Part shown: piece after piece, positions 21,697-44,100 of the stretch
Layout: each line of letters starts with the position of its first letter
How positions within the stretch are numbered: the stretch's first letter is position 1
DNA from: an uncultured Chitinophaga sp.
GTDB lineage: Bacteria > Bacteroidota > Bacteroidia > Chitinophagales > LD1
Reading direction: 5' to 3'
DNA: 49,026 nucleotides
NCBI GenBank assembly: GCA_964620645.1
Contig: CAZUHU010000006.1
Span: 1 to 49,026, forward strand
Made by a program: the position numbers and the translations under genes
The notes under the pieces: generated by a model
Told to the model about the DNA's origin: nothing
Seen by the model: only the letters and a program-made list of their open reading frames with translations
The model's database searches: none

Positions 21697-22395
21697 ATGC
21701 CCGAACAACCCAACAATAACTTTCAATACCCTATCGTCACCAACTTTCATGACATGGTTAATACCTCATTTGCCGGAGAGGTTAACGCAGTTTGCTGGCA
21801 ACGTAAGTTAGGTGGTGATTTTGCAGAGATAGTAAAGAAGATAGCGTTAAAGGATAACATAACGGTAATTGAGCAGGAAGAACTACGCGCGCTTGATTTA
21901 ACCGAACAGGGAGCAATGGCGCGTGAAATAATTTTAAACGATTGGGAATTATTGCAGGCGCATGGCGCATCGCCGGTGCTTAATTTAATAAAGCACTATG
22001 AAAGGGATAAGGCCTCCTCCTTCTTCCCTACCGATGTTTATTCTTTTCATGCAGATAGCTCGCCCATTGCCACCGATACTTTTTTATGTACCTACTATGG
22101 CGCGCCCAGTGAAATAATTCCAAACTCCCAATGCGAAAAGAAAGTGCTTGTTCCCGAAATACGCGCCGAGCTAAGAAAACTATACGATGGAGATGAAGAA
22201 GGCTTTGAGGACTTTCTGAAGGAGCACTTCTTTGATTTACACTATCAGGCTAAACCCAATGCTCAAATAATAAACTTAGGCACTGGTAAGCTGTGGCGTT
22301 TAGCGGTTGATAATCCTGAAAGCATGGTACCACCCTGCGTTCACCGGGCCCCGATAGAAAGAGATGGACAGACCAGGTTGTTAATGATTTGCTGA
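21697..22395 (+). CDS. Hypothetical protein, possibly DUF1826-like
   Basis: 232-aa ORF. VNAVCWQRKLGGDF near the N-terminus and PPCVHRAPIERDGQTRLLMIC at the C-terminus resemble my memory of DUF1826 proteins. The family assignment is unverified. Confidence 0.5.
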   Translation: MPEQPNNNFQYPIVTNFHDMVNTSFAGEVNAVCWQRKLGGDFAEIVKKIALKDNITVIEQEELRALDLTEQGAMAREIILNDWELLQAHGASPVLNLIKHYERDKASSFFPTDVYSFHADSSPIATDTFLCTYYGAPSEIIPNSQCEKKVLVPEIRAELRKLYDGDEEGFEDFLKEHFFDLHYQAKPNAQIINLGTGKLWRLAVDNPESMVPPCVHRAPIERDGQTRLLMIC

Positions 22396-22433
22396 CTAAC
22401 TGCCACAATTTTTTTTCCTATACATTCGCGCGC

Positions 22434-22853
22434 ATGAAAAAATCGGAATTGAACTTAAAAGTTAAGAGATCGGCAACAGGATTGGGCTTGTTTGCCATGG
22501 AATCAATAGCCAAAGGCACAAAAATCATAGAATATACCGGCGAAAAAATCGGCCTTGACGAGGCTAACCGCCGCGGGGGCATGTATTTGTTTGAGATTAA
22601 CCCCAAAACATTTATTGATGGCAAGAGCAGAAAAAATACAGCCCGCTACATTAACCATGCCTGCGGCTCAGCAGCAAACTGCGATATAGATATTAAAGCC
22701 GGCAGAATTTGGATAAACGCGAGAAAGAACATTAAGCCCGGCGATGAGCTATGCTATGACTACGGTAAAGAAATGTTTGATGCCTATATTAAACCATATG
22801 GTTGCCGTTGTGCAAAGTGTAGCTCAGCGCAAAAGGGCCGCCGTAACTTGTAG
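22434..22853 (+). CDS. SET-domain protein (putative protein-lysine N-methyltransferase)
   Basis: Carries YINHAC (NHxC), GDELCYDYG (ELxYDY) and the post-SET-like Cys cluster CRCAKCS. The ATG at 22434 (MKKSELNLKVKRS) is preferred over the track start at 22389, which overlaps the upstream gene. Confidence 0.85.
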   Translation: MKKSELNLKVKRSATGLGLFAMESIAKGTKIIEYTGEKIGLDEANRRGGMYLFEINPKTFIDGKSRKNTARYINHACGSAANCDIDIKAGRIWINARKNIKPGDELCYDYGKEMFDAYIKPYGCRCAKCSSAQKGRRNL

Positions 22854-26180: not shown

Positions 26181-26735
26181 ATGAGCAAGCGCGAAAAAAG
26201 TAACTACCAACTTGTAGAAGAGTTGGAGAAACGGGTAGAAAGTCACTTACAACTGGCCATAGGCACATTTCAAAACCTGCACGAAAACACATTGGTGAAA
26301 CCTTCCTCAAACGGGGGATGGAGTATTGCCCAATGCCTATGGCACTTAAATTCATATGGCCACCACTATTTACCTCATCTCGCACAAAGCTTGCATAGCG
26401 CTGCAGATTGCCCACCAAACCATCTCTTTAAATCAGGTTGGTTAGGCAACTACTTTACTAAGTTGATGGAACCCGGTGCCAATATGAAAAAAATGGGAGC
26501 CGACAAGGCACACACGCCACCCCGTATTACTGCGCCATACCCAGTAGTAGCAGAGTTTATACAACAACAGGAAACCCTCCTGGCTTTGCTTAAAGAAGCT
26601 AAACATAAGGACCTCAATCAACGAACGGTGTCCATCTCTATCCTCCGCTGGCTGAAACTGAAACCCGGAGATGTGTTAAGCTTTCTGGTAGCTCATAATG
26701 AAAGACACTTGCAGCAAGCCCAAAGAAATCTGTAA
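26181..26735 (+). CDS. DinB-superfamily protein
   Basis: Four-helix pattern with conserved His residues (CLWHLNSYGHHYLPHL and VAHNERHLQQ). The ATG at 26181 (MSKREKSNYQLVEELEKRVESHL) is preferred over 26142. Confidence 0.7.
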   Translation: MSKREKSNYQLVEELEKRVESHLQLAIGTFQNLHENTLVKPSSNGGWSIAQCLWHLNSYGHHYLPHLAQSLHSAADCPPNHLFKSGWLGNYFTKLMEPGANMKKMGADKAHTPPRITAPYPVVAEFIQQQETLLALLKEAKHKDLNQRTVSISILRWLKLKPGDVLSFLVAHNERHLQQAQRNL

Positions 26736-26806
26736 ATAGTTTACAGGCACGGTTCACGCATCCATTACCCACATTCATATTTTCAAACACATTAAACTAA
26801 TTAATT

Positions 26807-28012
26807 ATGAGAAATTTATTTCTTCTTCTAACCCTTTTTCTGTGCTCAGCTTCCAGGGCAGCAACTGACAGTACAGTGTATACGATAACCGCACAAATTT
26901 ATCCTGTAGCGGCAGGGCAGGTAAACGGCGCAGGTAGTTACCCCAAAGGCAGCTTTGTAACTCTTGAAGCCATACCCGTAAGCGGATTTACTTTCGGATA
27001 CTGGAGCTTGAACGGAATGATAACCAGCATGAACACCACCTTTCCCCTCGTAGTTGATACAGACCTTGTTGTTCAGGCCACCTTTTTACAACAACCGGAC
27101 AGTTTTCTGGTTACCGCTAATGCATTTCCGGTAAATGCAGGTATTGTTAGCGGCACAGGTATATACAAAAATGGTGATACCGCTGTTGTAACTGCCCATG
27201 CCAATGCAGGTTATACCTTTAACAACTGGCAGCAAAACGGCATTATAGTAAGCACTGATACCACTTATGCCTTTGCGGTTACAGCCAATATTCACTTAAA
27301 CGCTAGCTACCAGCAGTTACCCATACACGTAACTATCAGCACGCAGGTTTTTCCATCGGACGACGCAGGCACAACTACAGGCGGCGGAATTTATAACCAG
27401 GGAGATACAGTGCATTTAACAGCCAGTGCCCAAGCCGGTTATGTATTTGCCAACTGGCAGGTGTTAGGCATAATTGCAAGTAGTGATTCAGCCTATACCT
27501 TTATTGCTACGGGGGACATGAATCTGCATGCTAACTTTATACCGCTTACTTATACAATAACTACCAATGCCTTACCTGCGCAGGGTGGCACTGTATTGGG
27601 TGGCGGCAGCACCAGCCATGGCAGCACTGTAACCTTACAGGCCTTCGCCTACAACGGTTATGCTTTTGATTATTGGGAAGAAAACAGCACTGAGCTAAGC
27701 CGGTTGAGCCAATATTCCTTTACCGCTACTGCCGACAGAACAATTACGGCCCGCTTTAAATTGCTTACTTCTATAGAAGACAACAAAATCCCGGATATTA
27801 TTATAACTCCAAACTTTGGCAGTGGGCCGTTTAGTATAGCGGCTGATAATACTTACCAATTGCAGCTCTTTAATTATGCAGGGCAGGAAATCTTAACCAG
27901 AACTTTAGCCGAGGGAAATAATACTATCGAGATTTCTAACCCCGGTTTATACATCCTGCAACTTACCAATAACGAAGGCGTAACAGTAACAAAGAAACTG
28001 TTGGTTCAATAA
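26807..28012 (+). CDS. Secreted protein with four ~75-aa tandem repeats (InlB-B-repeat-like) and a T9SS type A C-terminal domain
   Basis: Has a signal peptide. The four repeats each carry the G-x-V/I-x-G-x-G-x-Y and GY-x-F-x-NW cores (GFTFGYWSLNG, GYTFNNWQQNG, GYVFANWQVLG, GYAFDYWEENS). The C-terminus is IIITPNFGSGPFSI...GLYILQLTNNEGVTVTKKLLVQ. Confidence 0.8.
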   Translation: MRNLFLLLTLFLCSASRAATDSTVYTITAQIYPVAAGQVNGAGSYPKGSFVTLEAIPVSGFTFGYWSLNGMITSMNTTFPLVVDTDLVVQATFLQQPDSFLVTANAFPVNAGIVSGTGIYKNGDTAVVTAHANAGYTFNNWQQNGIIVSTDTTYAFAVTANIHLNASYQQLPIHVTISTQVFPSDDAGTTTGGGIYNQGDTVHLTASAQAGYVFANWQVLGIIASSDSAYTFIATGDMNLHANFIPLTYTITTNALPAQGGTVLGGGSTSHGSTVTLQAFAYNGYAFDYWEENSTELSRLSQYSFTATADRTITARFKLLTSIEDNKIPDIIITPNFGSGPFSIAADNTYQLQLFNYAGQEILTRTLAEGNNTIEISNPGLYILQLTNNEGVTVTKKLLVQ

Positions 28013-28077
28013 TATCCTGAAGCAGAAGAGAGACAACCCGACAGCAGCAATCCTTTTGCAAATTATACCGGTATCGA

Positions 28078-28113
28078 AGCAAAGCTGCTCCGTTAAAGAG
28101 CGGCTTTGCTTTT
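28078..28113 (+). terminator. Rho-independent terminator
   Basis: AGCAAAGCTGCTC-CGTTAAA-GAGCGGCTTTGCT is a 13-bp stem with one G-U pair, followed by TTT. Confidence 0.7.
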
Positions 28114-28170
28114 ACAATGATACGCAAAAAGAAAATTCGATATTTTAGATGCAGGACTTAAACAGCAATA

Positions 28171-28736: not shown

Positions 28737-29321
28737 CTATCTGAATTGCTTCGGCTTTAAGTTTTGCGCTGCCAGCTCCGAAATTTCGGTAAGCCTTTTT
28801 TGCCGGGTTTCGGGCCTTTTGGCCAACACCAGCCATTGCAATATGGCTTTGCGCGAGGATTTGCTCAAGCTTAAAAAGTATTGTCTTGAGCCGGGCCGGG
28901 CTTTAAACTCTTTGCTAAGGTCCCTTGGTATTTCTAACTCTTCTACCTTATCTAAAATACTCCAGCTTCCATTTTGCTTTGCACGCTCAATAACTTCTAA
29001 ACCGGCTTCAGCCATCAGGCCTTCATCTATTAACCGCTGCACTTTCTGCTTATTGATTTTGGACCAGCCACTGTTAGCCTTTCGCTTACTGAACAGTTGT
29101 ATAAATTTTTCATGGTCCACCGGCTTACGCACACTGTCTATCCAACCAAAGCACAGGGCCTCGTCTACTGCATCGCTCCATACAACAGATGGCACGTTCG
29201 ACTTCTTTTTATAGGCTATTAGCCAAATCGATTGCTTAACGCGGTGGTTGCGCATAAGCCACTTTCTCCACTCCTGCCTGCTTTGCGGGCAAACTGTTTC
29301 CACCCCGTCCTTTTCTTTCAT
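28737..29321 (-). CDS. YdeI/OmpD-associated family protein
   Basis: CFGWIDSVRKPVDHEKFIQLFSKRKANSGWSKINKQKVQRLIDEGLM...QWLVLAKRPETRQKR is the typical YdeI pattern. It starts 4 nt after the LytTR regulator stop on the same strand. Confidence 0.8.
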   Translation of the reverse strand: MKEKDGVETVCPQSRQEWRKWLMRNHRVKQSIWLIAYKKKSNVPSVVWSDAVDEALCFGWIDSVRKPVDHEKFIQLFSKRKANSGWSKINKQKVQRLIDEGLMAEAGLEVIERAKQNGSWSILDKVEELEIPRDLSKEFKARPGSRQYFLSLSKSSRKAILQWLVLAKRPETRQKRLTEISELAAQNLKPKQFR

Positions 29322-29325
29322 AGTG

Positions 29326-30072
29326 TTACAGGGTTATCTTTTCTATTACGGCTAAAAACTCCGTCTTGCGTTCGCGCGCCAACGGTATTTGAATTTCATT
29401 TTCCAGCAACACATAGCCTCCCTCCTGCTTTACATACTGCTTCATCTTTTTAAGGTTGATGATGTAAGAGCGGTGCGTTCGGAAAAAATTGTTCTGCTGC
29501 GAAAGGGCATCTTCAAATTCCTTTATCTTTTTACTCACCAGTATTTTTCTTCCATCGCTGAAATGAAAGTGAGTGTAGGGCCCGTCAGCCTCCAGGTGCA
29601 AAATATCTTCAACGTTTACAAACAATAGCCCCTCGGCCACGGGCAACGCCAGTTTTTTAATAGTGTTGCCTTCAAAGTTTTCGCGTAATACGGAAAGGCG
29701 TTCCCGGTTTTGCCCACGTTTCGCCTTTACTTTTTCCACGGCAGCTATCAATTCCGAAATTTGAATGGGCTTTAATAAAAAATCAATAGCACTAACGCGG
29801 AATGCCTGTAAGGCATAGTCGCTGTGGGCGGTTGTAAAAACTATTTCAAAGTCTGTTTCCTTAAAAAAATCGAGCAACTGAAAACCGGTATAGCCCGGCA
29901 TTTCAACATCCAGAAAAAGCACATCGGGTTTGTGTTGGTTAATGGCAATAACGCCGGAGGGTACGTCTTCTGCCGTTGCAACCACTTCCACATCGGGGCA
30001 ATATTCGTGCAACAGGGCCTCAATTATCCTGCGCGCCTTGGCTTCATCATCAATAAGTATTGCCTTAATCAT
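29326..30072 (-). CDS. LytR/AlgR-family response regulator (receiver + LytTR DNA-binding domain)
   Basis: The receiver carries DDE...PDVLFLDVEMPGYTG...FTTAH. The LytTR domain reads ILHLEADGPYTHFHFSDGRKILVSKKIKEFED...FFRTHRSYIINL. Its ATG overlaps the kinase stop (ATGATTAA). Confidence 0.9.
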   Translation of the reverse strand: MIKAILIDDEAKARRIIEALLHEYCPDVEVVATAEDVPSGVIAINQHKPDVLFLDVEMPGYTGFQLLDFFKETDFEIVFTTAHSDYALQAFRVSAIDFLLKPIQISELIAAVEKVKAKRGQNRERLSVLRENFEGNTIKKLALPVAEGLLFVNVEDILHLEADGPYTHFHFSDGRKILVSKKIKEFEDALSQQNNFFRTHRSYIINLKKMKQYVKQEGGYVLLENEIQIPLARERKTEFLAVIEKITL

Positions 30073-31951
30073 AACTTACGGGTATTAATATAGAAACTCT
30101 GGTGCCCTGTGGCAAATCTTCGTAAAACACGCCAATGTGCTTATCACGGTTTTGGTTCAGCAAATCAAGGCGTCGGGCATTGGCTGAGGTAGAAAAAGAT
30201 TCGTTCAGCTTGCTACGGCTTTTATTTATTTCAGATGATGCGGCCCTCCCCACACCATTATCTTCCACCACGCAACTCAATAACTCTTTGCCTTCATCAA
30301 AATTAAAAGCTACCGTCAGCTTCTTTTCGCCCTTACGGTGCAGCAAACCGTGCCGGATGGCGTTCTCTACGTAAGGCTGTATAAGCATTGGCGGTAAACG
30401 AATATCATCCGCTATATCCTCATCATTAACAGTAATGCTAAACGAAAAATCAGTTTCAAAACGCAGGCCTTCCAATTGCAGGTATTTAGTAAGCATTTCT
30501 ACCTCATCGGCCAAAGAAATAAATTGCTTGCCGCTGGCTTTTAAAATATCGCGGGTTAACTGGCTGAATTTGCCGAGGTGCTCATTGGCTAAGCGCTTAT
30601 CACCAATAAAAAACATTTCCTGTATGCTGTTAAGCGCGTTAAAAATAAAGTGAGGGTTCATTTGCGCCTTAATGGCCTTCAGTTCACTTTCGCGTTGTTC
30701 AAGCGCAGTTTGTTGCTGTTTTATTTTCAACTCCCGCAGCTCGGCTTCGCGCTTCTCGGTTTCGTAGCGTTTATTTAATAGCGCTACCTGCTTAATGCGC
30801 TCGGCATTTATTAGCTCCGCTTCCAGTTGTGCTTTTAACCTCAACGCATTATAAGCCTCCTTAAACTCCTTAAGCTGCTCATGGCATTGTGCCAACATTG
30901 CCAGGCTGGTAATATGGTCATTGGCGGGTATAGCATCGCCCTTAGTGACAATAGATTGCTGCAGAAAATCAACAGCCCTCTCGTGGTCTTTCATTAAAAA
31001 ATAAATACGGCCCATTTGAAATTGCGCACTGCCTAACTTGCGGCTATTGTTTTCGCTTACTGCTTCTGCCACCGCCTGCTTAGCAAAGTTAATGGCATCC
31101 TCTACCCTGCCCGCATGGTAATAGGTTTCTGCATCGCTAAGTTGCAACTGCTGTGCGCGGTGCGCATTTACGGCTGCATGGTGTAAATCAATTTCGCGCA
31201 GAAAAAACTTCCGGGCCAACTCCATTTCTCCTTTCCTGCTATACAAATGTCCCAACTGCCGCGCTACGCCAAGCAAGGCTGTTTGATCGTTTTCTTCATC
31301 TTTAATGCGCAACACCTCGCATCCATATTCAATAGCTTTGTCCACATCTCCGCTTTTATCAGCTATGGTTTGAAGCATTTTTAAATGGTGCACTGTATCA
31401 AGCGGGCGGCCGCACGCCTTTGCAATTGTTAAGCCCCCCATGGCTATTTCCGCAGCACGGTTAAGGTTTTCGTTCACAAGGTACTGTGCCGCCTGGTGAT
31501 AGCATTCCGCCTTCATTAAAGAATCGGGTAGTGCTTTGTAATCTTCAACACAGCGCAGTAAAATTTCGCCCGCTTCATCTGCTTTGTGCTGTCGTAATTT
31601 GTGTAGCCCAATTTTTTGCAGGGCAGTTAAGCGGCCTTGTTCATCCTTAATTTCAATAGCTAATGCCACTGCCTTTTCCAGATGTTCAATAGCCCTTTCC
31701 GATGCCGAAACGCCTTCCTCTAATATTGCCCGTACAGTCCAGTAATCTATTTCCGTTGCCTTAAAATCCCCCTCGCGGCAAATTTCAAGCGCTTTGTTGG
31801 CGTAGTCTAAAGCCAGTTTAGGGTCACTTGGTTTATGCTCTACCGCAAGGTACAAATAGGTATCAGCCTTTTGAGCACCTGTTTCGGTTTCAAGCCTTTT
31901 CAATAAATCAGCAATAGAAGTGCCGTAAAAACTCACCCTCAAGTTTACCAC
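30065..31951 (-). CDS. Soluble TPR-repeat sensor histidine kinase (LytS/YehU-type His_kinase + HATPase)
   Basis: The C-terminal half has H-box NPHFIFNALNSIQ and N-box PPMLIQPYVENAIRHG, preceded by a coiled coil. The ~400-aa N-terminal region is TPR-like, and I see no hydrophobic segment long enough for a TM helix. The track start is a GTG at 31951. The exact start is uncertain, with TTG at 31942 and GTG at 31936 as alternatives. Confidence 0.85.
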   Translation of the reverse strand: MVNLRVSFYGTSIADLLKRLETETGAQKADTYLYLAVEHKPSDPKLALDYANKALEICREGDFKATEIDYWTVRAILEEGVSASERAIEHLEKAVALAIEIKDEQGRLTALQKIGLHKLRQHKADEAGEILLRCVEDYKALPDSLMKAECYHQAAQYLVNENLNRAAEIAMGGLTIAKACGRPLDTVHHLKMLQTIADKSGDVDKAIEYGCEVLRIKDEENDQTALLGVARQLGHLYSRKGEMELARKFFLREIDLHHAAVNAHRAQQLQLSDAETYYHAGRVEDAINFAKQAVAEAVSENNSRKLGSAQFQMGRIYFLMKDHERAVDFLQQSIVTKGDAIPANDHITSLAMLAQCHEQLKEFKEAYNALRLKAQLEAELINAERIKQVALLNKRYETEKREAELRELKIKQQQTALEQRESELKAIKAQMNPHFIFNALNSIQEMFFIGDKRLANEHLGKFSQLTRDILKASGKQFISLADEVEMLTKYLQLEGLRFETDFSFSITVNDEDIADDIRLPPMLIQPYVENAIRHGLLHRKGEKKLTVAFNFDEGKELLSCVVEDNGVGRAASSEINKSRSKLNESFSTSANARRLDLLNQNRDKHIGVFYEDLPQGTRVSILIPVSYD

Positions 31952-31959
31952 AAAAATTT

Positions 31960-31989
31960 ACCATTCATAAACTGAAAGTTACCGTTCAT
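31960..31989 (+). promoter_or_regulatory. Candidate LytTR-regulator binding site: 9-bp direct repeats separated by 12 bp
   Basis: The site reads ACCATTCAT (31960-31968), a 12-nt spacer, then ACCGTTCAT (31981-31989). The second repeat matches the LytTR consensus [TA][AC][CA]GTTN[AG][TG] at all constrained positions, and the first misses one (G to A). It lies in the 114-bp divergent region next to the LytTR regulator operon. Confidence 0.55.
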
Positions 31990-32024
31990 GAAACGGGCGG
32001 AAATACCCCCTTTTAACGGCTGAT

Positions 32025-32038
32025 GTTTGCGCGCAAAC
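32025..32038. promoter_or_regulatory. Perfect 14-bp palindrome GTTTGCGCGCAAAC
   Basis: The sequence is its own reverse complement. It ends 27 nt upstream of the ATG at 32066 and overlaps a near-consensus -7-like GATGTTTG. Confidence 0.35.
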
Positions 32039-32065
32039 AAAATTCAATCAACCAAATTAAAAGAA

Positions 32066-34252
32066 ATGAAAAAGACAATTACTCTGATGGTTTTACTGCT
32101 AACCCTGTGTTTCAGTAAAACCTATGCGGGTGGACCTTCTGCCGCTACCCGGTTCGACATGGGCTTTGGCCAAAACGGATTTTATATTGACACCTTAACA
32201 GGCGGGCCGGCTGGCACCTATATACAGTATATGGAAATTTTAGCCGGGGCAGCCAACCAGTTTTGGATTGGCGGTGTTACCAATGGCAGTTACCTTGCTA
32301 ATAAGTTTGACGCCAACGGCGGCCTTATTATGAGCAAAACCGGAAGTGCCTACCAGGCGGCCGGCGGTTATACGGGTGCAATAAAAGGCAATAAGTTTTT
32401 CCTTGGTGGCCAGAACCCCAACGGAGGCCATTACCAAAACATAGCCTACAATTTTGATGGAACTACTAACCCTATGTTCCATCAAAGCACACAACCCGAC
32501 TCCTTTATTACAGAAGCGCTGTATGGGCCTAATTATCCGGTAGGCCAAAGCAACCCGAACTGCTCAGATATTTTAGTAGGAGGTGATATAGTAACAGCCG
32601 TAATCAACTACAGCGGCGATAGCTTATACATCACCCAGTTCGCTCAAGCACCTCATACTACTGTAATTACCTTTCCTAAAATTGCGAGTAGCATTGGTAC
32701 ATGGCGCCCCAAAGCGCTACGTACTATACCCGGTAGTAACACCTGCGCTTTACTGGTTTATGATGTAATGGGCAGCAGTACAGTATTTGTTATTAGCAAC
32801 GGCACCGTTATATCTTCCTATAGCTTAGGTAATGTGCGTTATAATGCAATGATTGCCGTAAACAGTTCACAAATGCTTCTGGGAGGCGATAACCTGTTAC
32901 TATTAAATATAAACACCGGCGCAACCACCGCGGTTACAGCCAATGTAAGCAACGTTTTACAGCTTACCCGGCACGCTGCAAGCGGAGAAATTTATGCCTT
33001 TAATGGCACCAACCTTTATGCGCTAACCTCAGCCATGGTTTTAGACAACACGTTTAACCCCGATGGTTTAGGCAACAATTTTGACTACACACCGGTTAAT
33101 GCCGCTTACCTGTTGGGCACGCAGCAAATTTATTTTACTGATATGGAAATGCTGGGTAACGACATTTTACTTTCCGGCTTTGCGCCCGACTTAAACGGAA
33201 CACCAACTACTGCCGGGTTCGCAGGCTTTGTAATAAAAATACTGGGTAAAGGGTCCAACCCCTCTTTATGCGCTAACTTTACAGCCCAACTGGATTCAGT
33301 TTACGGCACCAGTGGCTGCGATTGGAACGCACACATCACTTTAGCAGGTGCTTTTCCTATGACTGCTACTTTTACCTGGTCGAGTGGTGGCTCAACCACT
33401 CAAGTAACCTCATCACCTTTTATACCGGGCGGCTTATGCCCTGAAACCTACGAGATACTGTTTGAAGATACCAACCATTGTACAGGCTTGGTAAACTTTG
33501 TTACGCCTCCGCCAACACCATGCGTTACACCGGTTATCAGCACACAACTGCCAACTAACCTGCCACTTTGCGAAGGAGAAACCTTACAACTGGGCCCCGT
33601 AAACGTAAGCAACACCACCAACTATACCCAGCAATGGTATAAAGATGGGGCAGCCATTACCGGTGCAACCTTAAACAGCCTTTATACACCACTTGTTACC
33701 ACAAGTGAAAACGGTAGCTATTATTACATAGCAACTTCTAACTGCGGAGCAGGCAGCGACACCTCGGAAACCGTGGCCGTAAACGTTACCGCCAATGCTG
33801 CTGCGGTAATTCTGCAAACCGGCAATGTGTTAACCGCTACACAGTTTACACCCGGTGCATCTTTTGCATGGCACTTAAACGGTACACTTATCCCTAATGC
33901 TAACGATAGCACTTACGTTGCAACACAAAGCGGTAACTATACGGTAAGCACCACTAACGGAAACTGTATGAAATACAGCGATAACCTGAACGTAACCGTT
34001 ATTGGAATTACCGATGAAGAGGACAACAGCAAACTTTCGGTTTACCCTAACCCCGTTACTGAGCTTTTAATTTTAAGCTGCGATGAAGAAATTGAAACGG
34101 TAGAGGTGTATAGCATAACCGGCCAACAGGTATTATTTGTGAGGGGGCAAATAACCAAAGTAAATGTGGCCCCCCTCGCCAATGGCCTTTACACCCTTAA
34201 AACAAAAGCAGCAAGCGGTAAAAGCGCCGTTAAGCAATTCAGTAAACAATAA
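32066..34252 (+). CDS. Secreted multidomain protein with a T9SS type A C-terminal domain
   Basis: The ATG at 32066 gives a clean signal peptide (MKKTITLMVLLLTLCFSKTYA); the TTG-initiated track start at 32027 is rejected. The N-terminal ~400 aa is beta-rich and propeller-like, followed by Ig-like Cys-bracketed modules. The C-terminus is LSVYPNPVTELLILS...GLYTLKTKAASGKSAVKQFSKQ. Confidence 0.8.
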   Translation: MKKTITLMVLLLTLCFSKTYAGGPSAATRFDMGFGQNGFYIDTLTGGPAGTYIQYMEILAGAANQFWIGGVTNGSYLANKFDANGGLIMSKTGSAYQAAGGYTGAIKGNKFFLGGQNPNGGHYQNIAYNFDGTTNPMFHQSTQPDSFITEALYGPNYPVGQSNPNCSDILVGGDIVTAVINYSGDSLYITQFAQAPHTTVITFPKIASSIGTWRPKALRTIPGSNTCALLVYDVMGSSTVFVISNGTVISSYSLGNVRYNAMIAVNSSQMLLGGDNLLLLNINTGATTAVTANVSNVLQLTRHAASGEIYAFNGTNLYALTSAMVLDNTFNPDGLGNNFDYTPVNAAYLLGTQQIYFTDMEMLGNDILLSGFAPDLNGTPTTAGFAGFVIKILGKGSNPSLCANFTAQLDSVYGTSGCDWNAHITLAGAFPMTATFTWSSGGSTTQVTSSPFIPGGLCPETYEILFEDTNHCTGLVNFVTPPPTPCVTPVISTQLPTNLPLCEGETLQLGPVNVSNTTNYTQQWYKDGAAITGATLNSLYTPLVTTSENGSYYYIATSNCGAGSDTSETVAVNVTANAAAVILQTGNVLTATQFTPGASFAWHLNGTLIPNANDSTYVATQSGNYTVSTTNGNCMKYSDNLNVTVIGITDEEDNSKLSVYPNPVTELLILSCDEEIETVEVYSITGQQVLFVRGQITKVNVAPLANGLYTLKTKAASGKSAVKQFSKQ

Positions 34253-34375: not shown

Positions 34376-36769
34376 CTATTGCGCGCCGGTAATACATAAT
34401 TGTTTTGCAGTAATCTTTCCGTTGTTGTTTACATGCACCAGAATATATGCAGCATCAACCTGGCTAAGTGTTTTGGTGTAAATACCGGCTTTGGTCCAGG
34501 TATCTTCCATCAGCTTTTGGCCAAGGATGTTGTATACATCTATCTGTGCTTTTACCTGTTTCACCTTACTGAAATCGATAAAGATGTTGCTTTCGTTGCT
34601 CCACATACGGATAGCTTCTTTATCTAAATTATCAATACCGGTTGCAGACTTAGCTGTTACGGTTACCTGCTGTTGCACGGTTGATGAACAACCGTCGGCA
34701 TTAGTAACAGTAAGCGTTACGGTGTAAACACCTTCGCTTTGGTATTGGTGGGTTGCAGTAGCTGTAGTGGCTATAGCGCCATCGCCAAAGTTCCACTCTG
34801 TGGCAGTTGCATTAACTGTGGTAGAAGTAAACGTAATGTCCTCAGCAGTTTCAGCAGTCGTTTTATCAACTGTCATTGAGGCGGTCATTGCCTGAACACC
34901 GTTAACCTGAACATTCTTAACAACGGTGTAACCGCTGCTATCAACAAGGGTTACCTGGTAAACACCGGCAGGTACACTTAGGTGAAATGGGCTCACAACA
35001 CTAAGTGCACCATTACCGATGTTATTTCCTTGTATGTCATTTACGCTTACCGTCCAGGCTGCAGCGCCTTCCTGTGCCAGTTCAATTTCTCCCAAGCTTT
35101 CGCATGTGGCATTTAAAGTATTTACCTGAACAGCAGGGGTAAAATGCAATACAAACCTGTAACGGCTGTCAGTTGCTGCACTGCTGAAGCTGTAGTCCCC
35201 CTGCCTAACGTTATGCATAATGTGGAGTTTAGTATCCTCCAGCGTGATATAAGAAGTGGCATCAAAAGAAGTAAGGCCGTCAAAACTTAAAGTATAGTTG
35301 CCGTTAATGCCGGGCTCAAAACCAACAGGCACACGCATGGGTTGCGTGGGCGGCGGCAAGGTATTAAGGCAATACCATTCGGCCGTATCAGAAGTATAGC
35401 TGAATAAGGTATGCCGATTAAGTGCGCCTGCCATTTTCAATCCATCAAAAGCATTATCATAATGCGCTGTAGCGTTTGCATTAAAAGCAACAGTGGTTAC
35501 ATCTAACAACCCTGTTGCATTGTTAGCTGCCTTAATAACCAATTGCTCATTAGTTTGCTTCTGGTAATTGGGGTTATTGCCCTTTACCCTTTGCGTTGCA
35601 TTTATTACATACGAAGCAGGCCCCGGCGCGCTGCGATGCACCATAAAACCCTGGAAGGGCGCTACCACAGTTGCAGGTTGATAGCTTCCGGCAAAAGCTC
35701 CGTTTGTATTCCACACCATTTTAAGCACATCAAAGCCGGTTACCGCGCCACTTATATCCAGTTCGGCAAGGTAGGGGTTAGCTACCAGGTGCCAACCGGA
35801 GGCTACGGGGTGGCCCTGTAGCGTTACATTAAGCCAGTTGCTGTTATCTAAATTGTTAAGTGTATACGAAGAGGCAAGGTTAGGTTGTCCGGTAAGAGAA
35901 AGCACGCCTGAGCCTGTTTTATAAATAGAATAGCCCTGTGCGTTTTGCGTATTGCCGGCCACTTCAACTTTCCAACCGGCGGTGGAACATACCGCCCCTT
36001 GTGTTTCATCATAACTGAACACGGTACCGAAAGGGGACCCTACTGCAACCTGTGTTTCATCACAAGTGCCTACAGGCACTACATAGCCCGGTGTACCCGT
36101 GGCGCCCAGTTGGCTAAAAGCCACGTTATCTACAGGCGAACCTAAAAAGTGCTGGTAATAGGCGCCCGATGCCGCTGCATCGTAGTAACGTTCTGCCGTT
36201 ACTGGCCCCGTAATTGTACCGTTATAGCCAGGGCTAAAATTATCGATAATTGCAGCTTGTGCAGCATAAGTGCTTTTGAATGTCAGCACTCCACCGGTGG
36301 TAGCAAAATTACCGGTCTGCAACTGCAATTCGGAATAAATGTTTACCGCTGCGCCCGGCTGCATAACAACCCCTGCCGTGTTATTAATCCGCAGCATGCT
36401 TATCTCTATCATGCCCGAAACATTCTGGCTGCTGCTACCGGAAAGAACAAAAGCACCGCTACCCAGCACCAGGGCGTTGGAACTTGTTCCACCGGTAACA
36501 TTGCCACATACATCTATATTGCCGATAACCAAAAGCAGTGTGTTATCCTGTATTTCAATATCATGAACACTAACAGATGAGATTAACACAGGATCGTTAC
36601 CTGTATATGGTATCAATACATCAGCAGTGCAACCGTTAGGCACCACACCATTACTCCAATTGGAGGGGGTGCCCCAATCGCTGGTATTTCCCAGCCATGT
36701 ATTAAGGCCAAAAGCATTAACAGTAGCCACCAGCATGGCAACAACAAGAAAAAGAGAATTTCTAATCAT
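34376..36769 (-). CDS. T9SS cargo protein: stand-alone copy of the C-terminal module of the giant gene (PKD domain + type A-like CTD)
   Basis: The ATG at 36769 gives signal peptide MIRNSLFLVVAMLVATVNAFG (track start 36823 rejected). The mature protein starts with NTWLGNTSDWGTPSNWSNGVVP and is collinear with residues from CGANTWLGGTNDWHTAGNWSNGFVP to the end of the 41116 ORF. The two share GWH-x-VANPYLA, PFQGF-x-VHRS and RFVLHFTPA. A PKD-like stretch (WNFGDGAIATT...YTVTLTVTNADGCSS) is followed by a CTD. Confidence 0.85.
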   Translation of the reverse strand: MIRNSLFLVVAMLVATVNAFGLNTWLGNTSDWGTPSNWSNGVVPNGCTADVLIPYTGNDPVLISSVSVHDIEIQDNTLLLVIGNIDVCGNVTGGTSSNALVLGSGAFVLSGSSSQNVSGMIEISMLRINNTAGVVMQPGAAVNIYSELQLQTGNFATTGGVLTFKSTYAAQAAIIDNFSPGYNGTITGPVTAERYYDAAASGAYYQHFLGSPVDNVAFSQLGATGTPGYVVPVGTCDETQVAVGSPFGTVFSYDETQGAVCSTAGWKVEVAGNTQNAQGYSIYKTGSGVLSLTGQPNLASSYTLNNLDNSNWLNVTLQGHPVASGWHLVANPYLAELDISGAVTGFDVLKMVWNTNGAFAGSYQPATVVAPFQGFMVHRSAPGPASYVINATQRVKGNNPNYQKQTNEQLVIKAANNATGLLDVTTVAFNANATAHYDNAFDGLKMAGALNRHTLFSYTSDTAEWYCLNTLPPPTQPMRVPVGFEPGINGNYTLSFDGLTSFDATSYITLEDTKLHIMHNVRQGDYSFSSAATDSRYRFVLHFTPAVQVNTLNATCESLGEIELAQEGAAAWTVSVNDIQGNNIGNGALSVVSPFHLSVPAGVYQVTLVDSSGYTVVKNVQVNGVQAMTASMTVDKTTAETAEDITFTSTTVNATATEWNFGDGAIATTATATHQYQSEGVYTVTLTVTNADGCSSTVQQQVTVTAKSATGIDNLDKEAIRMWSNESNIFIDFSKVKQVKAQIDVYNILGQKLMEDTWTKAGIYTKTLSQVDAAYILVHVNNNGKITAKQLCITGAQ
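34409..34761 (-). repeat. Near-identical 353-bp tract, copy A (partner at 41149-41501)
   Basis: Compared block by block by eye with a constant offset of 6740 nt. The single mismatch is 34451 A versus 41191 T. Identity drops on both sides, in the last 11 codons plus 3' flank and upstream of 34762. Confidence 0.9.
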
Positions 36770-36804
36770 ATTAATTATTTTTTGAAACATAAAAAGGAAG
36801 GGAG

Positions 36805-36837
36805 CGGGGGGCTGAATAAGCATGAAAACAGCCCCCG
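36805..36837 (-). terminator. Rho-independent terminator after the SBBP-repeat gene (reverse strand)
   Basis: The reverse strand reads CGGGGGCTG-(14-nt loop)-CAGCCCCCCG, a 9-bp stem with a 1-nt bulge, followed by CTCCCTTCCTTTTTATG. Confidence 0.6.
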
Positions 36838-36864: not shown

Positions 36865-39465
36865 TTACAGCTTAACCAGTTTAGCGTTAAATGGCCTGCT
36901 GCCGTTAGAAATACGTATAAAGTAAGTTCCACTGACCAGGCGGTGCACATCAAGCCTTGTAATGGCTTGTGTTAAAAGCAAAGTCATTACAAGGCTTCCG
37001 TCCAATGCAAACATTTCCATAGTGCCTTCATTACCGGTAAGCTTTGTTTCTATCTCAATAGTTACTATATCCAAAAAAGGATTGGGCCCTATACTAACCT
37101 CTCTGGATTTAGTTTCCGCTATGCCCACTCCGCCTGCAGTGTAACAGCTTGAAGTATCAACGCACCCCGCATTGGTTGTTACCACCACAGCATAATTGCC
37201 CAATTGAGTTGCGATAAATGAGGAGGTTGTTTCTCCGTTAACAGCATCGCCATTTGCACAATCAATCCACTGGTATGTTCCATTTGTTTGAGAGCAGATA
37301 AGCGTATCACCGTTTTGAGTAACGCTGGCATCAACCGTGTTTACAATTACAGATATAGTATCAAAAGCCTGGCAGCCTGCATTTGTTTCTACCGTTACAT
37401 AGTACTGCGTAGTTTGCGAGGGGGCAACATCTATAGTTGAGGTTACTGCACCCGTGGACCATGTATAATTATCGCCATTAAAATTCTGATCGCTGATAGT
37501 GGTGCTTTCCCCTGCACAAACATCAGTTGCATCTAATTCCGGATTAGGGTAGGCATTTACATAAACGTCAACGGTTGCTGTATCAACACATCCGTTGGCG
37601 GCAGTGCCGGTAACAACAAAACTAAGCGGGCCTACAGCAGTAGTGGGCACCGTAGCTCCTGAGTTTACGTCACCTGTATTCCATACATAGCTAATTGCGC
37701 CTCCCGCATATAACGTTATATCGGTGCCTACGCATACATCGCCTGAAGTGGCAGTAGCAGTTACATTGGGCACCTGCTTTACGTAAATAGTTTTTGCGGT
37801 TCTCGCACCTGCGCCGCAAGTACTATCTTGCGCCCAAACCACAAAAGGGCTTTGAACATTTGGCAAATTATATGTTCCACTTGCAAGGCAGGTGCCTGCA
37901 GTCGGACTGTCGTACCAGCTTATCACCCCGTTACCGGAAGCAGAAAGACTTACAGCAAAACCTGAGCAAATCGAATCTGAAGGAGAAGCGGACACTGTTG
38001 GCGCCGGAGGAAAGTTGCAGTCGGCAAACTTTACGATAAAGCCTTCCTGCGAATTGCTAGTTGTTTCCAGCTTTCTGTTAACCGGGCTTATGTCAACATC
38101 TATATTGATGTTAAAATAGCCCGTTAAGTAAATAGCTGAATTGTTATCAATACAAAGCCCGTTACCAAGGCTGTTGCCCCCGTTAACCAAAGGGTAACCC
38201 CAAATGGGCAGTCCCGTTGTTGAGTATTTCAAAAGGTAAGGATCATGGCCCGATGTATTTACCCGTAGCGTATCAGGGCCGGGGTTAGCATCAAAAGCGC
38301 CCTCGGAATAACCGGTTACATATACGTTTGAGCTTGCATCTAAAGCAACGGTAAAGGCAGTTGTATTAAATGTGCCCCAATAACCGTTCACCCATTGGTA
38401 AACACCTGCCGATGAATACTTGGCAACATAGCCACTCACATAATTGGTTGCCGGTGCCGAAACTATAGCCGTGCCAGCTGTTGGATCAAAATCTGTGCTG
38501 CCGTTAATATAGCCGCATACGTAAGCACTGCCTGTGGCATCAACTGCCACGCCTAGGGCAAAATCTATAGCGTTAGGTCCACCAATGCTTACGCTCCAGC
38601 TTAAAATTAAAGAAGGGTTATACTTTGCCAGGAAAGCATCGCCGGCACCATTGGAGGTCATATTGCTGACTGCTCCCCCTGGGTTAAAATTAACCGTGCC
38701 CGCATAACGGCCGCTAACCAAAAAGTTGCCAGTAGCGTCTATAGCCAGGTCAATTCCAAAATCCTCACCTGTTCCACCCACTCTTCTTTCATTAACAAAA
38801 ATCCCTGCAGTGGTGTATTGTGCAATAAATATATCGTGCGCCCCTGCCGAGGTATCATTCTTTACAGCTGCAGCCGGATTAAAGTCAGCTATAGAAAAGA
38901 AGCGACCTGTTATACAGATATTTCCATTTGCAGGGTTAACACAAATGGCTGAAGCAAAGTCATCATCAGGTCCACCCATGGCACCGGCCCACAGGTAGTT
39001 TCCGGAGGTATCATACTTGGCCAGAAAAATATCATTGTAACCAACTGCACCTAACTTGTTAGTTGCCGCCGAGGGGTTAAAATCAGCAGTATCAGTAAAA
39101 TAACCTGTTATCCAGATATTACCGGATTGATCAAGCGCAAGGTCATAAGCCTCTTCGGCACCGGGCCCCCCGATACTTTTTGCCCACTGTAATTGGCCGG
39201 AAGAAGAGTATTTGGCAATAAAAATATCTAAGCCCGAGTTTACGGAGGACAAAACCGTGCTGCCGCTGCTAAAATCAAAGTCAACATTACTGCCGGCATA
39301 ATAGCCTGCAACATACACGTTACCTGCTCCATCAGTTTTTACAGCCTTAACCATATCGGTACCACTTCCGCTTACTGCCCCCGCCCAGTTATAAGCAGGG
39401 CCGGTTACAGCCCCCGAAAAAAGATAAGAACACATTGCAAGCAACAGGAGTAGATGTTTCTGCAT
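36865..39465 (-). CDS. SBBP (beta-propeller) repeat protein with Ig-like modules and a T9SS type A C-terminal domain
   Basis: 866 aa with a signal peptide. About ten repeats follow the pattern D-x-x-GN-x-Y/W-V/I-TGY-x(n)-DF (for example DGAGNVYVAGYYAGSNVDFD, DQSGNIWITGYFTDTADFNP, DASSNVYVTGYSEGAFDANP). Cys-bracketed Ig-like modules come next, then the C-terminus VSIGPNPFLDIVTIEI...GTYFIRISNGSRPFNAKLVKL. Confidence 0.85.
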   Translation of the reverse strand: MQKHLLLLLAMCSYLFSGAVTGPAYNWAGAVSGSGTDMVKAVKTDGAGNVYVAGYYAGSNVDFDFSSGSTVLSSVNSGLDIFIAKYSSSGQLQWAKSIGGPGAEEAYDLALDQSGNIWITGYFTDTADFNPSAATNKLGAVGYNDIFLAKYDTSGNYLWAGAMGGPDDDFASAICVNPANGNICITGRFFSIADFNPAAAVKNDTSAGAHDIFIAQYTTAGIFVNERRVGGTGEDFGIDLAIDATGNFLVSGRYAGTVNFNPGGAVSNMTSNGAGDAFLAKYNPSLILSWSVSIGGPNAIDFALGVAVDATGSAYVCGYINGSTDFDPTAGTAIVSAPATNYVSGYVAKYSSAGVYQWVNGYWGTFNTTAFTVALDASSNVYVTGYSEGAFDANPGPDTLRVNTSGHDPYLLKYSTTGLPIWGYPLVNGGNSLGNGLCIDNNSAIYLTGYFNINIDVDISPVNRKLETTSNSQEGFIVKFADCNFPPAPTVSASPSDSICSGFAVSLSASGNGVISWYDSPTAGTCLASGTYNLPNVQSPFVVWAQDSTCGAGARTAKTIYVKQVPNVTATATSGDVCVGTDITLYAGGAISYVWNTGDVNSGATVPTTAVGPLSFVVTGTAANGCVDTATVDVYVNAYPNPELDATDVCAGESTTISDQNFNGDNYTWSTGAVTSTIDVAPSQTTQYYVTVETNAGCQAFDTISVIVNTVDASVTQNGDTLICSQTNGTYQWIDCANGDAVNGETTSSFIATQLGNYAVVVTTNAGCVDTSSCYTAGGVGIAETKSREVSIGPNPFLDIVTIEIETKLTGNEGTMEMFALDGSLVMTLLLTQAITRLDVHRLVSGTYFIRISNGSRPFNAKLVKL

Positions 39466-41115: not shown

Positions 41116-44100
41116 CTATTTAGTGCCTGTTATAAATAATTTTTGCGTAGTAATCTTTCCGTTGTTGTTTACATGCACCAGAATATATGCTGCATCAACC
41201 TGGCTAAGTGTTTTGGTGTAAATACCGGCTTTGGTCCAGGTATCTTCCATCAGCTTTTGGCCAAGGATGTTGTATACATCTATCTGTGCTTTTACCTGTT
41301 TCACCTTACTGAAATCGATAAAGATGTTGCTTTCGTTGCTCCACATACGGATAGCTTCTTTATCTAAATTATCAATACCGGTTGCAGACTTAGCTGTTAC
41401 GGTTACCTGCTGTTGCACGGTTGATGAACAACCGTCGGCATTAGTAACAGTAAGCGTTACGGTGTAAACACCTTCGCTTTGGTATTGGTGGGTTGCAGTA
41501 GTTGTAGTGGCTATAGCGCCATCACCAAAGTTCCATTCGGTAGTGGTTGCGTTAGCTGTGGTAGAAGTAAAGGTAATGTCCTCAGTAGTTTCAGCAGTGT
41601 TTTTATCTGCAGTCATACCTGCCGCAATGGTTTGCACACCATTAATCTGCACGTTCTTAACTACTGTATAACCGCTGTTATCTACTAAAGTAACCTGGTA
41701 AACGCCTGATGTTGCACTTACAGCCACGCTGTTATTCTGGCTCAATGTTCCGCTGGCAATTACCACATTGTTCTGGTTGCTTACGGTGTAATTCCAGTTA
41801 GCAGAACCAGGTTGTTCAATAGTAATCTGGCCCATTGTGGCACAGCTTGCATCGGTAGTGCTAAAGGCAGCAGCCGGTGTAAAATGAAGTACAAAACGCT
41901 CATGAGCATCGGCAGTAGTGCTTTGGAAAGTATAAGTTGGGTTTTGTCTTAAATCAATCCACTGTCCGGTTAACTTATCTTCCAGAAACACATAGCTTGT
42001 AGGATCGAAGCTGTTAATGCCGCTTGCAGTAAAGGTAAACGTTCCGTTAGCGCCCGGTATAAAGTTCATAGGCACGTTTGGTGTTTCATCAATAGTGCGG
42101 TTTACGTTTATTGATAAACGTTCAGCATTGTTGGTGTTAAATGTAAAGATGGTAGGCTGGCCTAAAACGCTTAGTGGTTTGCGGTTATCGTAACCAAGGT
42201 CGTAAGCGTTAGTAGCATCCGAATTAAACTCTACGTAAGTAATATCATTAAAGCCGTTACCGCTAACCTGTATGTTCATAGCATACTGGCTGGCCTGCTT
42301 GTAGAAAGTTTGGCCGGCGTTAGTAGTACACTCACTCTTGTTAAATGTAAAGTTTACACTGCTTGAAGAGGAGCGGTGAACAATAAAGCCCTGGAACGGA
42401 GCAATGCTGCCTCCTGTAATTGGAATAGGCTGGTATGAACCGCTGAATGGTCCGCTGGTTACCCAAATAGCCGCTGCATCAAAATCAGGCGCGTGGCCAT
42501 TCAAGGTAAGCGGCGCCAGGTAAGGGTTAGCTACAATATGCCAGCCCGATTCGTAAGCCGCAGGAACAAACCCGAAGGTCTGAAGGGTGTTGCTTGCCCA
42601 GCCGATGTTATTCATACCGTTAACCGAGTAGCTTGCGCCCTGGTTAATGTTACCGGTAATGCTGAATACACCGTTTGGCAGAAAGGCAGAGTAACCGCGG
42701 CCTGCTTGTGTAGTACCGCTCACTTTTACTTCCCAACCGTTATACAAGCACTGTGCGTTTAGTGGCTTATCATCATGCCACTGGAATACGGTACCATAAG
42801 GGCTGTTAATAGCAGTTTGTGTTTGGTCGCAGTTCCAGGTTGGTAATACGTAACCCGCAACACCTGTTGCACCTAACTGGCCAAATGTGGCGTTGGTTAC
42901 CGGTGTGCCAAAGTAGTGCTGGTTAGTACCACCCACTGGCACAAAGCGCTGGGCAGTAGCATTACCGCTTAAGCTACCTGTAAAGCCTGCACTGAAGTTA
43001 TCAAGTATAGCAATTTGCGAGGCAGATGTGCTGCGGAAGCGTAAGGTAGCGCTGCCGGTGCTTAATACACCTGTTTGCAATTCTACTGCGTTAAACACAT
43101 CAACCGAAGCACCGGCCTGTAACGAAGCGCCTGCTGCGTTATTAAGGCGCAGGGTATTTACTTCCAGCTTGCCGCTTAATTGCTGGGCGCCGCTGCCACT
43201 TAATATTAAGCGGCCCGTGCCGTTAACCTGTGCCACGGTGCTTGCACCGCCGCTAAAGTTGCCGCATACATTAAGGTTAGCATTAAGGGTAAGTGTTGTT
43301 CCGTTTTGCAACTGAACGCTGCCTACGTTAACCGCACTGCTTAATACAGGGTTATTTGGTGTAACAGGTACTATAACATCATGCGAACACAAAGTAGGAA
43401 CAAAGCCGTTGCTCCAGTTGCCGGCAGTATGCCAATCGTTGGTGCCGCCTAACCAGGTGTTAGCGCCGCAGGTAGTTACGTTAACAGCTACTGTGCCTGT
43501 AGAAGTACAGCTTTGGTTATCTGTAACAGTTACATTATAAGTGCTATTGGTTGTTGGAGCCACTGAACCACCGGAAACGTTACCGGCTATACCGCTGCTC
43601 CATGCATAAGTGCTAATAGGATTGCTTCCTGCGGTTGCACCTGCTGAAATAGTAGAAGCTGCACCATTACATATAGTAGCCGGTGTAGCCGTAGGCGCTA
43701 AAACAGGTGGATTATAAACCACAAAGTTAGTAGCTGTGCGGCAAGTACTGTTTGAAGAACATGCAGCATAGAATGTAGTTGTACCCGGTGTATTAGGGTT
43801 AACCAGGCTTAAGCTTACAGGGTTTATTGATGAGCCTGTACCAACAACTGTGCCGCCTACAGCTGCACTATACCAGTTCATAGATACTGTACCAGGCAGC
43901 ATAATTTGACCGCCGCTTGGTGGTGTTACCGTCCATGTAAATGGCCCGGTATAAGTACCCGAAACAGTTGCATAAGTAGTTGAAACAAGCGTATAGGTAG
44001 TACCCGCATTTAAGGTAACAGTCATTAAAGGTTCGTTACCAGCAGCACCACCATCATCATCACCTATTACCCAGGTACCGCCGCCGGCACAGTTGCCGGG

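Follow-up and report, generated by a model that had tools for sequence, protein, structure and literature searches.

A candidate LytTR operator at the promoter of a T9SS cargo gene in an uncultured Chitinophaga

In Porphyromonas, genes of the type IX secretion system (T9SS) are controlled by PorX/PorY together with SigP; PorX is a non-LytTR regulator, and the genes it controls are those of the secretion machinery. Among LytTR regulators, YehT has the repeat ACC[GA]CT[CT]A, which the half-site described here resembles. LytTR sites have been described as imperfect direct repeats of the form [TA][AC][CA]GTTN[AG][TG], 12-13 bp apart and located upstream of the -35 element (PMC5600425). A more general description gives repeats of 9-11 nt and spacers of 11-13 nt, with no universal consensus, and the target of YpdB is a direct repeat of GGCATTTCAT (PMC4847170). 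In our literature search, no paper connected T9SS cargo genes with LytTR regulators, and none gave the family of TPR kinases and LytTR regulators discussed below a target, a binding motif or a characterisation.

The locus described here lies in a 49,026-nt window, the whole stretch of DNA that was analysed, taken from the forward strand of contig CAZUHU010000006.1 of an uncultured Chitinophaga sp. (GCA_964620645.1). A sequence-only reading of the window had proposed that two 9-bp repeats separated by 12 bp form a LytTR operator, placed where an activator of the neighbouring T9SS cargo gene would bind. This core proposal is backed by conservation in 8/8 loci and by a fixed distance of 36-37 nt in 15 sites. 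From the comparative analysis, we consider it probable that the repeats are the operator of the LytTR regulator encoded at 29326-30072, and that this regulator activates the adjacent T9SS cargo gene. The features of the locus are listed in Table 1.

The locus and its genes

Domain searches found a single LytTR regulator in the window, the product of 29326-30072, and its gene is separated from the putative operator by 1.9 kb. The closest named family for this regulator is BtsR/YehT, with a score under the cut-off (123 vs 246 bits, NCBIfam). The start of the regulator gene overlaps the end of the kinase gene by 8 nt. The kinase has a His_kinase module (PF06580, E = 7e-22), paired with the receiver-LytTR regulator, and its N-terminal 380 residues consist of TPR repeats. 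It has no 19-residue window at hydropathy 1.5, no hydrophobic segment and no 5TM Lyt domain, and is therefore predicted to be a soluble cytoplasmic protein. Because soluble TPR repeats replace the membrane Lyt domain, the kinase falls outside the strict LytS/YehU/YpdA group. Sequence searches of the PDB with the cargo protein and the regulator gave nothing new on function. Exact database look-ups returned no match for the cargo protein, nor for the kinase with a start at 31951, and the contigs from the regulator look-up end short of the intergenic region.

The window as a whole is unusually rich in T9SS sorting-domain genes (at least seven, with Por_Secre_tail or CHU_C domains). The sorting-domain search gave no match for an 815-aa PKD protein at 34376-36823. 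A 154-aa bacterial SET-domain protein is encoded at 22389-22853 (PF00856, E = 6e-21), beside a DUF1826-like gene. One metagenome contig (L081) encodes an identical regulator protein and agrees with the window at 98-99% to the left and right of a gap, with 166 bp (2402-2567) where the window has 1392 bp (26732-28123). The 1392 bp missing from the contig hold a 401-aa Flg_new / Por_Secre_tail gene (26807-28012). As read from this alignment, the difference is strain-level presence/absence of one T9SS cargo gene. In public runs, the locus (31700-32400) occurs almost exclusively in activated-sludge and wastewater metagenomes, which makes its source an uncultured Chitinophagales lineage of sludge. 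In a co-occurring strain of ~85% identity, the intergenic region has kept its length (118 vs 116 nt), with a sequence that is overall <80% identical.

Table 1. Coordinates of the genes and sequence features at the locus, numbered from the first letter of the window.
Feature	Position	Strand	Remarks
T9SS sorting-domain genes	4118-8992, 16781-17983, 19251-20855, 26807-28012, 32066-34252, 36865-39465		Domain search; 41116-48876 outside the scan
OmdA/YdeI-like gene	28737-29321	-	Starts 4 nt past the end of the regulator gene
Response regulator	29326-30072	-	Response_reg + LytTR; presumed binder of the repeats
TPR + LytS-type histidine kinase	30065-31936	-	623 aa; Pfam; corrected start GTG 31936
-7-like box TAAACTTG	31940-31947	-	3 nt upstream of the kinase start codon; candidate kinase-operon promoter
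Distal extended half-site TTACCATTCATAAA	31958-31971	+	
Distal 9-bp repeat ACCATTCAT	31960-31968	+	Predicted -74 to -66 from the cargo TSS
12-nt spacer AAACTGAAAGTT	31969-31980	+	First 3 nt are part of the extended half-site
Proximal extended half-site TTACCGTTCATGAA	31979-31992	+	
Proximal 9-bp repeat ACCGTTCAT	31981-31989	+	Predicted -53 to -45 from the cargo TSS
Stretch between operator and -7 box	31993-32021	+	29 nt; constant length, unconstrained sequence
-7 box GATGTTTG	32022-32029	+	Predicted box of the cargo promoter, Bacteroidota sigma-A type TAnnTTTG, at -12 to -5; 90% conserved (pairwise identity)
Start-site/leader block CGCGCAAACAAAATTCAA	32030-32047	+	Remaining conserved block; 85% conserved (pairwise identity)
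Predicted target cargo gene	32066-34252	+	728 aa; signal peptide, Ig-like region, T9SS C-terminal sorting domain (Por_Secre_tail, Ig_2)

The paired repeats and the cargo promoter

Re-reading of the sequence bears out the repeats as first described: they are on the same strand with exactly 12 nt between them, and the longer units AAATTTACCATTCATA and AAAGTTACCGTTCATG agree at 13/16 positions. The 9-mers themselves are equal at 8/9 positions, and the surrounding sequence reads ...aaaaaTTTACCATTCATAAACTGAAAGTTACCGTTCATGAAAcggg... The proximal repeat matches [TA][AC][CA]GTTN[AG][TG] throughout; the distal repeat departs from it once, with A instead of G at position 4. The distances given earlier were also right: the site lies 33 bp from GATGTTTG, 77-106 bp from the cargo ATG (32066) and 9-38 bp from the GTG at 31951.

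How often would such a site be expected by chance? The rate first claimed for the consensus, 1 in 2048, was an underestimate. The actual rate is ~1 in 1200, with 38 and 44 matches per strand in 49 kb, and one loose-consensus match overlaps the site itself on the minus strand (31967-75). Furthermore, the window contains ~12 distinct pairs of 9-mers with at most one mismatch at a 21-nt offset, so that a direct repeat by itself is not rare. A pair at this offset that fits the consensus occurs once in the window, at this site, and was not produced by any of 40 shuffles. The pattern ACCRTTCAT-N12-ACCRTTCAT, with up to three mismatches, has one occurrence in the window vs 0.14 expected, and a PWM pair scan of the window gave a single site with a score of 42, the maximum over 50 shuffles being 17. 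The automated repeat search skips the 9-mers because its exact seeds are too short. That search offered a third half-site (AAGTTTACCA / AAATTTACCA, 13 nt apart), which we rejected: its left copy is without the TT[CT]AT core, and is kept in the orthologues as a minus-strand box, TAA[AC]CTTG.

When GTDB representative genomes were searched with the kinase, no close orthologue was found, the best match being 35% identical; 80 distant GTDB loci were used for the motif scan only. The protein database contained a graded series of kinases from 89% to 53% identity, and a search of metagenome contigs with the TPR part returned the L085 contig alone. In six loci from uncultured Chitinophagales (L085, L086, L087, L088, L095 and L096), the kinase gene is divergent from a Por_Secre_tail gene, as it is in the window. 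L089 and L090 are one locus, which has two tandem TPR kinases and the same intergenic module ahead of the first. Two further orthologous kinases, in L091 (69%) and L092 (57%), have a co-directional housekeeping gene upstream. The assemblies holding L085, L086, L088 and L090 are GCA_009612935.1, GCA_046329515.1, GCA_035299425.1 and GCA_019638515.1, respectively. In all 8 divergent loci a Response_reg + LytTR regulator lies beside the kinase, and regulator identity among the orthologues is 76-95%.

Both 9-mers and the 12-nt spacing, proposed from the window alone, are kept in 8/8 orthologous divergent regions, in which neutral sites are saturated. Pairwise identities were calculated for 7 orthologous loci with kinase identities of 69-90%. 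The distal 9-mer has a mean pairwise identity of 90% and is identical in 6/7 orthologous loci; the corresponding value is 83% for the proximal 9-mer and 63% for the spacer, which is exactly 12 nt long, with no indel, in 8/8 loci. The 4-fold degenerate sites of the adjacent kinase gene provide a saturated baseline of 38%. In the alignment of the eight divergent regions, the distal unit TTTACCATTCAT is nearly invariant and the proximal unit reads TACCGTT[CTG][AG]TGAA, with the GAA flank after the repeat 100% conserved. Since the eight loci share ancestry, they represent fewer than eight fully independent observations. As judged from these alignments, purifying selection acts on the repeats, on the 12-nt spacer and on the 36-nt spacing between the site and the -7 box. 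When DNA runs were searched at 80% likeness, other strains aligned only at 31949-31992 inside the diverged spacer, which fits the conservation and was left out of the count of conserved loci.

The cargo promoter shows the same constancy of spacing. Its predicted -7 box, GATGTTTG, matches TAnnTTTG at 7/8 positions, and in these orthologues starts with G instead of T (GAnnTTTG). The flavobacterial sigma-A -7 box is located at -12 to -5 (PMC9723704), which places the predicted cargo TSS at ~32034 and gives a 32-nt leader. The proximal repeat is 32 nt from the -7 box in all seven loci and 33 nt in L089. The 29-nt stretch between operator and box has a pairwise identity of 38%, equal to the 4-fold baseline, with no indels in 7 loci and one additional nucleotide in L089; it is followed by the strongly conserved GATGTTTGCGCnCAAACAAAATTCAA. 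Across 15 sites, including 7 that did not contribute to the PWM, TTTG always follows the proximal 9-mer at 36-37 nt (15/15), and the start codon lies a variable 4-42 nt beyond TTTG. The repeats are oriented toward the downstream cargo gene. In the orthologue alignment there is no conserved -33 TTG within the 29-nt stretch, which is the expectation for an activator-dependent promoter. Repeats at about -74 to -45 without a conserved -33 would suit an activator that takes the place of the upstream promoter element.

A 16-bp perfect palindrome, TGTTTGCGCGCAAACA (32024-32039), overlaps the -7 box and the predicted start, and is followed by a conserved CAAACAAAATTCAA. In L085, L087 and L096 the symmetry of the palindrome is incomplete, with no compensating changes. 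The conserved block and the palindrome over the predicted start hint at a second, unnamed factor; an alternative is that they are a leader element. In metatranscriptomes, one contig inside the cargo gene covers 32168-32387, and contigs from RNA runs have a depth of only 2-6x. The library behind a contig that spans the intergenic region carries the label METAGENOMIC, and hence this contig is not readable as RNA.

Together, these features suggest the following mechanism. The soluble TPR histidine kinase would phosphorylate the regulator, and a head-to-tail pair of regulator molecules would occupy the 14-nt half-sites TTACCATTCATAAA and TTACCGTTCATGAA, which begin 21 bp apart, a distance of two helical turns. 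From its position upstream of the start site, the bound regulator would recruit RNA polymerase to a -7-box promoter that has no -33 element, and the single adjacent T9SS cargo gene would be switched on. This regulator as the binder, activation as the effect and the position of the TSS are all predicted.

Recurrence of the design and the choice of target gene

The site precedes two non-orthologous types of cargo gene. The first type, found in the window, L085, L086 and L096, encodes proteins of 723-734 aa with an identical MKK... start. The second type, found in L087, L088 and L095, encodes proteins of ~1900-2100 aa. The two types have only ~200 C-terminal residues in common, consisting of an Ig-like region and the sorting-domain tail. 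The sequence-only reading had also suggested that the system controls a block of T9SS surface-protein genes. With one site only for the sorting-domain genes of the window, at least seven in number, that suggestion has to be narrowed to the single adjacent gene.

Is the arrangement found at other genes? Loci around distant TPR kinases, 1.05 Mb in total, were scanned with the PWM. L089 contains a second site (score 33), which was not in the PWM set and lies before a giant cargo gene without a divergent kinase. Its distance to the -7 box is as in the window, and it has the same CAAACAAAATTCAAT leader. In L002, where the regulator is 55% identical, there are four sites, each ~75-115 nt upstream of a small secreted gene and pointing toward that gene. 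The products of these small genes start MKK/MN..., three carry PKD domains, and none of the genes has a divergent kinase. The LytTR regulator gene of the same system is no more than 3 kb away from any of the four sites, and there is a TPR kinase in the cluster. Weaker variants of the site are found in L050 (regulator 46%), ahead of a stand-alone LytTR gene, and in L047 (regulator 35%), directly ahead of the regulator gene. All of these independent sites (L089 site 2, L002, L047 and L050) point at the downstream gene, and the additional sites with promoter geometry have a 21-nt periodicity, except for that in L047, where it is 20. The scan also matched L025, L003 and L020; these matches are without promoter geometry and were discarded as false positives.

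As far as sequence matches can tell, the same geometry thus recurs at independent genes beside related LytTR systems. Motif scores weaken with falling regulator identity, from 55% (L002) through 46% (L050) to 35% (L047), and motif and regulator appear to diverge together. Two of these loci have further features of their own. L089/L090 (4133-8590, 2741-2949) encodes tandem TPR kinases of 621 and 616 aa and a single LytTR regulator, with two putative operator sites. One of these faces 70-aa and 294-aa ORFs that resemble a broken window-type cargo gene; the other faces the giant cargo gene. L002 (7002-10498) is a compact candidate regulon around the regulator gene, with one paired LytTR box and one -7 box per gene.

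The site lies between divergent transcription units, and its distance to the kinase operon depends on where the kinase gene starts. An earlier suspicion that this start was mis-set proved to be justified: comparison with the orthologues, which are 623 aa long and begin M/V-SFYGTS(I), moves it from GTG 31951 to GTG 31936. The repeats are 24-53 nt from the corrected start, vs 9-38 nt from 31951. In 7 loci, TAAACTTG, TAACCTTG or TATATTTG lies 3-4 nt ahead of the kinase start codon, which suggests that the mRNA of the kinase operon may be leaderless; in F. psychrophilum, leaderless mRNAs are only ~5.5% of mRNAs (PMC9723704). The regulator gene of L047 and the stand-alone LytTR gene of L050 likewise have TTTG 4 nt ahead of the ATG. 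Minus-strand GAATTTTG (32045-32038) was also considered as a kinase promoter and was rejected, since this block is found after L089 site 2 too, in a place that has no divergent kinase.

An alternative explanation for the site is that it mainly controls the kinase/regulator operon, by repression or by activation, and that the cargo gene is incidental. Autoregulation is common in LytTR systems. Furthermore, a gap of 12 nt separates the distal repeat from the putative kinase -7 box and one of 23 nt separates it from the corrected kinase start, and L047 has a similar site directly ahead of its regulator gene. However, the kinase start codon is 21, 23, 24, 34 or 41 nt from the distal repeat, depending on the locus, whereas the spacing to the cargo -7 box is constant, and the repeats point away from the kinase. 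In L091 and L092, where the orthologous kinase operons lack a divergent cargo gene, the ±6 kb around the kinase contains no site, and the best pairs score 8.6 and 9.0. In addition, the genes downstream of L089 site 2 and of the L002 sites have no divergent kinase. We therefore regard control of the kinase operon as an unlikely main function. The autoregulation proposed in the sequence-only reading does not fit a kinase-start distance that varies between 21 and 41 nt, nor kinase operons that have no site once the divergent cargo gene is missing. With only 12 nt between the distal repeat and the putative kinase -7 box, autoregulation may nonetheless occur as a local side effect, and part of the conservation of the distal repeat could serve the kinase promoter. 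On comparative grounds, we assign the site to the cargo promoter, and any effect on the divergent kinase operon would be at most secondary.

It is less probable still that a different protein binds the repeats, either another LytTR paralogue or an unrelated protein that recognizes direct repeats. Additional LytTR regulators are encoded near the cargo genes in L087 (13606-13857) and L089 (11371-12123), and cross-binding is possible because these genomes have several LytTR paralogues. Against this, the site co-occurs with the present regulator lineage in 8/8 divergent loci, motif strength drops as regulator identity drops, and the four L002 sites surround that system's own regulator gene within 3 kb. 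Least plausible, to the point that we give it very little weight, is a chance match, conservation by kinship only or an RNA element in a long kinase leader starting from the 32038-45 block: loose consensus matches (~1 in 1200 nt) and 21-nt-offset pairs of 9-mers are not rare and minus-strand GAATTTTG resembles a -7 box, but neutral positions are saturated at 38% vs 83-90% for the repeats, no shuffle reaches the score of the site, independent sites share its geometry, an Rfam search of 31850-32150 gave no match, and the block also follows L089 site 2 with no opposite-strand kinase downstream.

Significance and comparison with known systems

What does an operator for the LytTR regulator at the cargo promoter add to what is known? 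The site has the classical LytTR design, and its mechanism would be the ordinary textbook one; what would be new is its place in an unstudied Bacteroidota regulator family. A protein search returned 950 relatives of the soluble TPR / LytS-type kinase at E ≤ 1e-30, and pairs of such a kinase and a LytTR regulator abound in Bacteroidota. For this family, the locus supplies a conserved candidate motif, [TC]T[AG]C[CT][AG]TT[CTG][AG]T[AG][AT]A, present twice, 21 bp apart. It also supplies a promoter geometry, with 36-37 nt to the TTTG of the -7 box, and a class of targets, namely secreted Ig/PKD-type proteins, several of which have T9SS sorting domains. With motif, geometry and target class in hand, regulons of the TPR-kinase/LytTR family should be predictable genome-wide. 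The locus may also provide an example of an activator that replaces the -33 element at a Bacteroidota promoter.

A more speculative possibility, which we consider rather improbable, is that kinase, regulator, operator and promoter constitute a portable cassette for one secreted protein. Cargo genes would be swapped behind this cassette, and the TPR domain would sense the cargo or the state of secretion; it might sense, for example, the unsecreted precursor. If this is true, such cassettes would provide cargo-specific feedback control of type IX secretion.

Three groups of described systems invite comparison. The first, PorX/PorY, is likewise a two-component system tied to T9SS-related expression in Bacteroidota. 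In contrast to PorX/PorY, the regulator here is of the LytTR type and is linked with a single cargo gene, not with genes of the machinery.

The second group comprises the Firmicutes operators of the AgrA P2/P3, ComE and PlnC type, which likewise consist of two imperfect 9-bp repeats that fit the consensus, with a 12-bp spacer. In these systems the regulator is encoded nearby, as here, and the site is upstream of the promoter's upstream element, as is predicted here (PMC5600425). The present locus differs in its Bacteroidota host and in its -7/-33 type of sigma-A promoter, the -33 element being absent here. It also has a soluble TPR kinase in place of a membrane peptide receptor, and a T9SS-secreted target in place of a quorum-sensing or bacteriocin operon. 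We saw no autoinducer gene at this locus.

The third group, YpdA/YpdB and YehU/YehT (BtsS/BtsR) of E. coli, has the same PF06580 His_kinase module, and BtsR is the best named match for the regulator. The half-site, ACC[AG]TTCAT, is most like those of YpdB and YehT, and resembles the YpdB repeat GGCATTTCAT (PMC4847170). The locus differs from these systems in that its regulator is under the NCBIfam cut-off for BtsR, its kinase has a cytoplasmic TPR region instead of a 5TM Lyt domain, and its targets are secreted surface proteins, whereas those of the E. coli systems are pyruvate transporters. The logic would nonetheless be shared: in YpdAB and YehUT, and by prediction here, the system activates a single target gene that is adjacent or close by.
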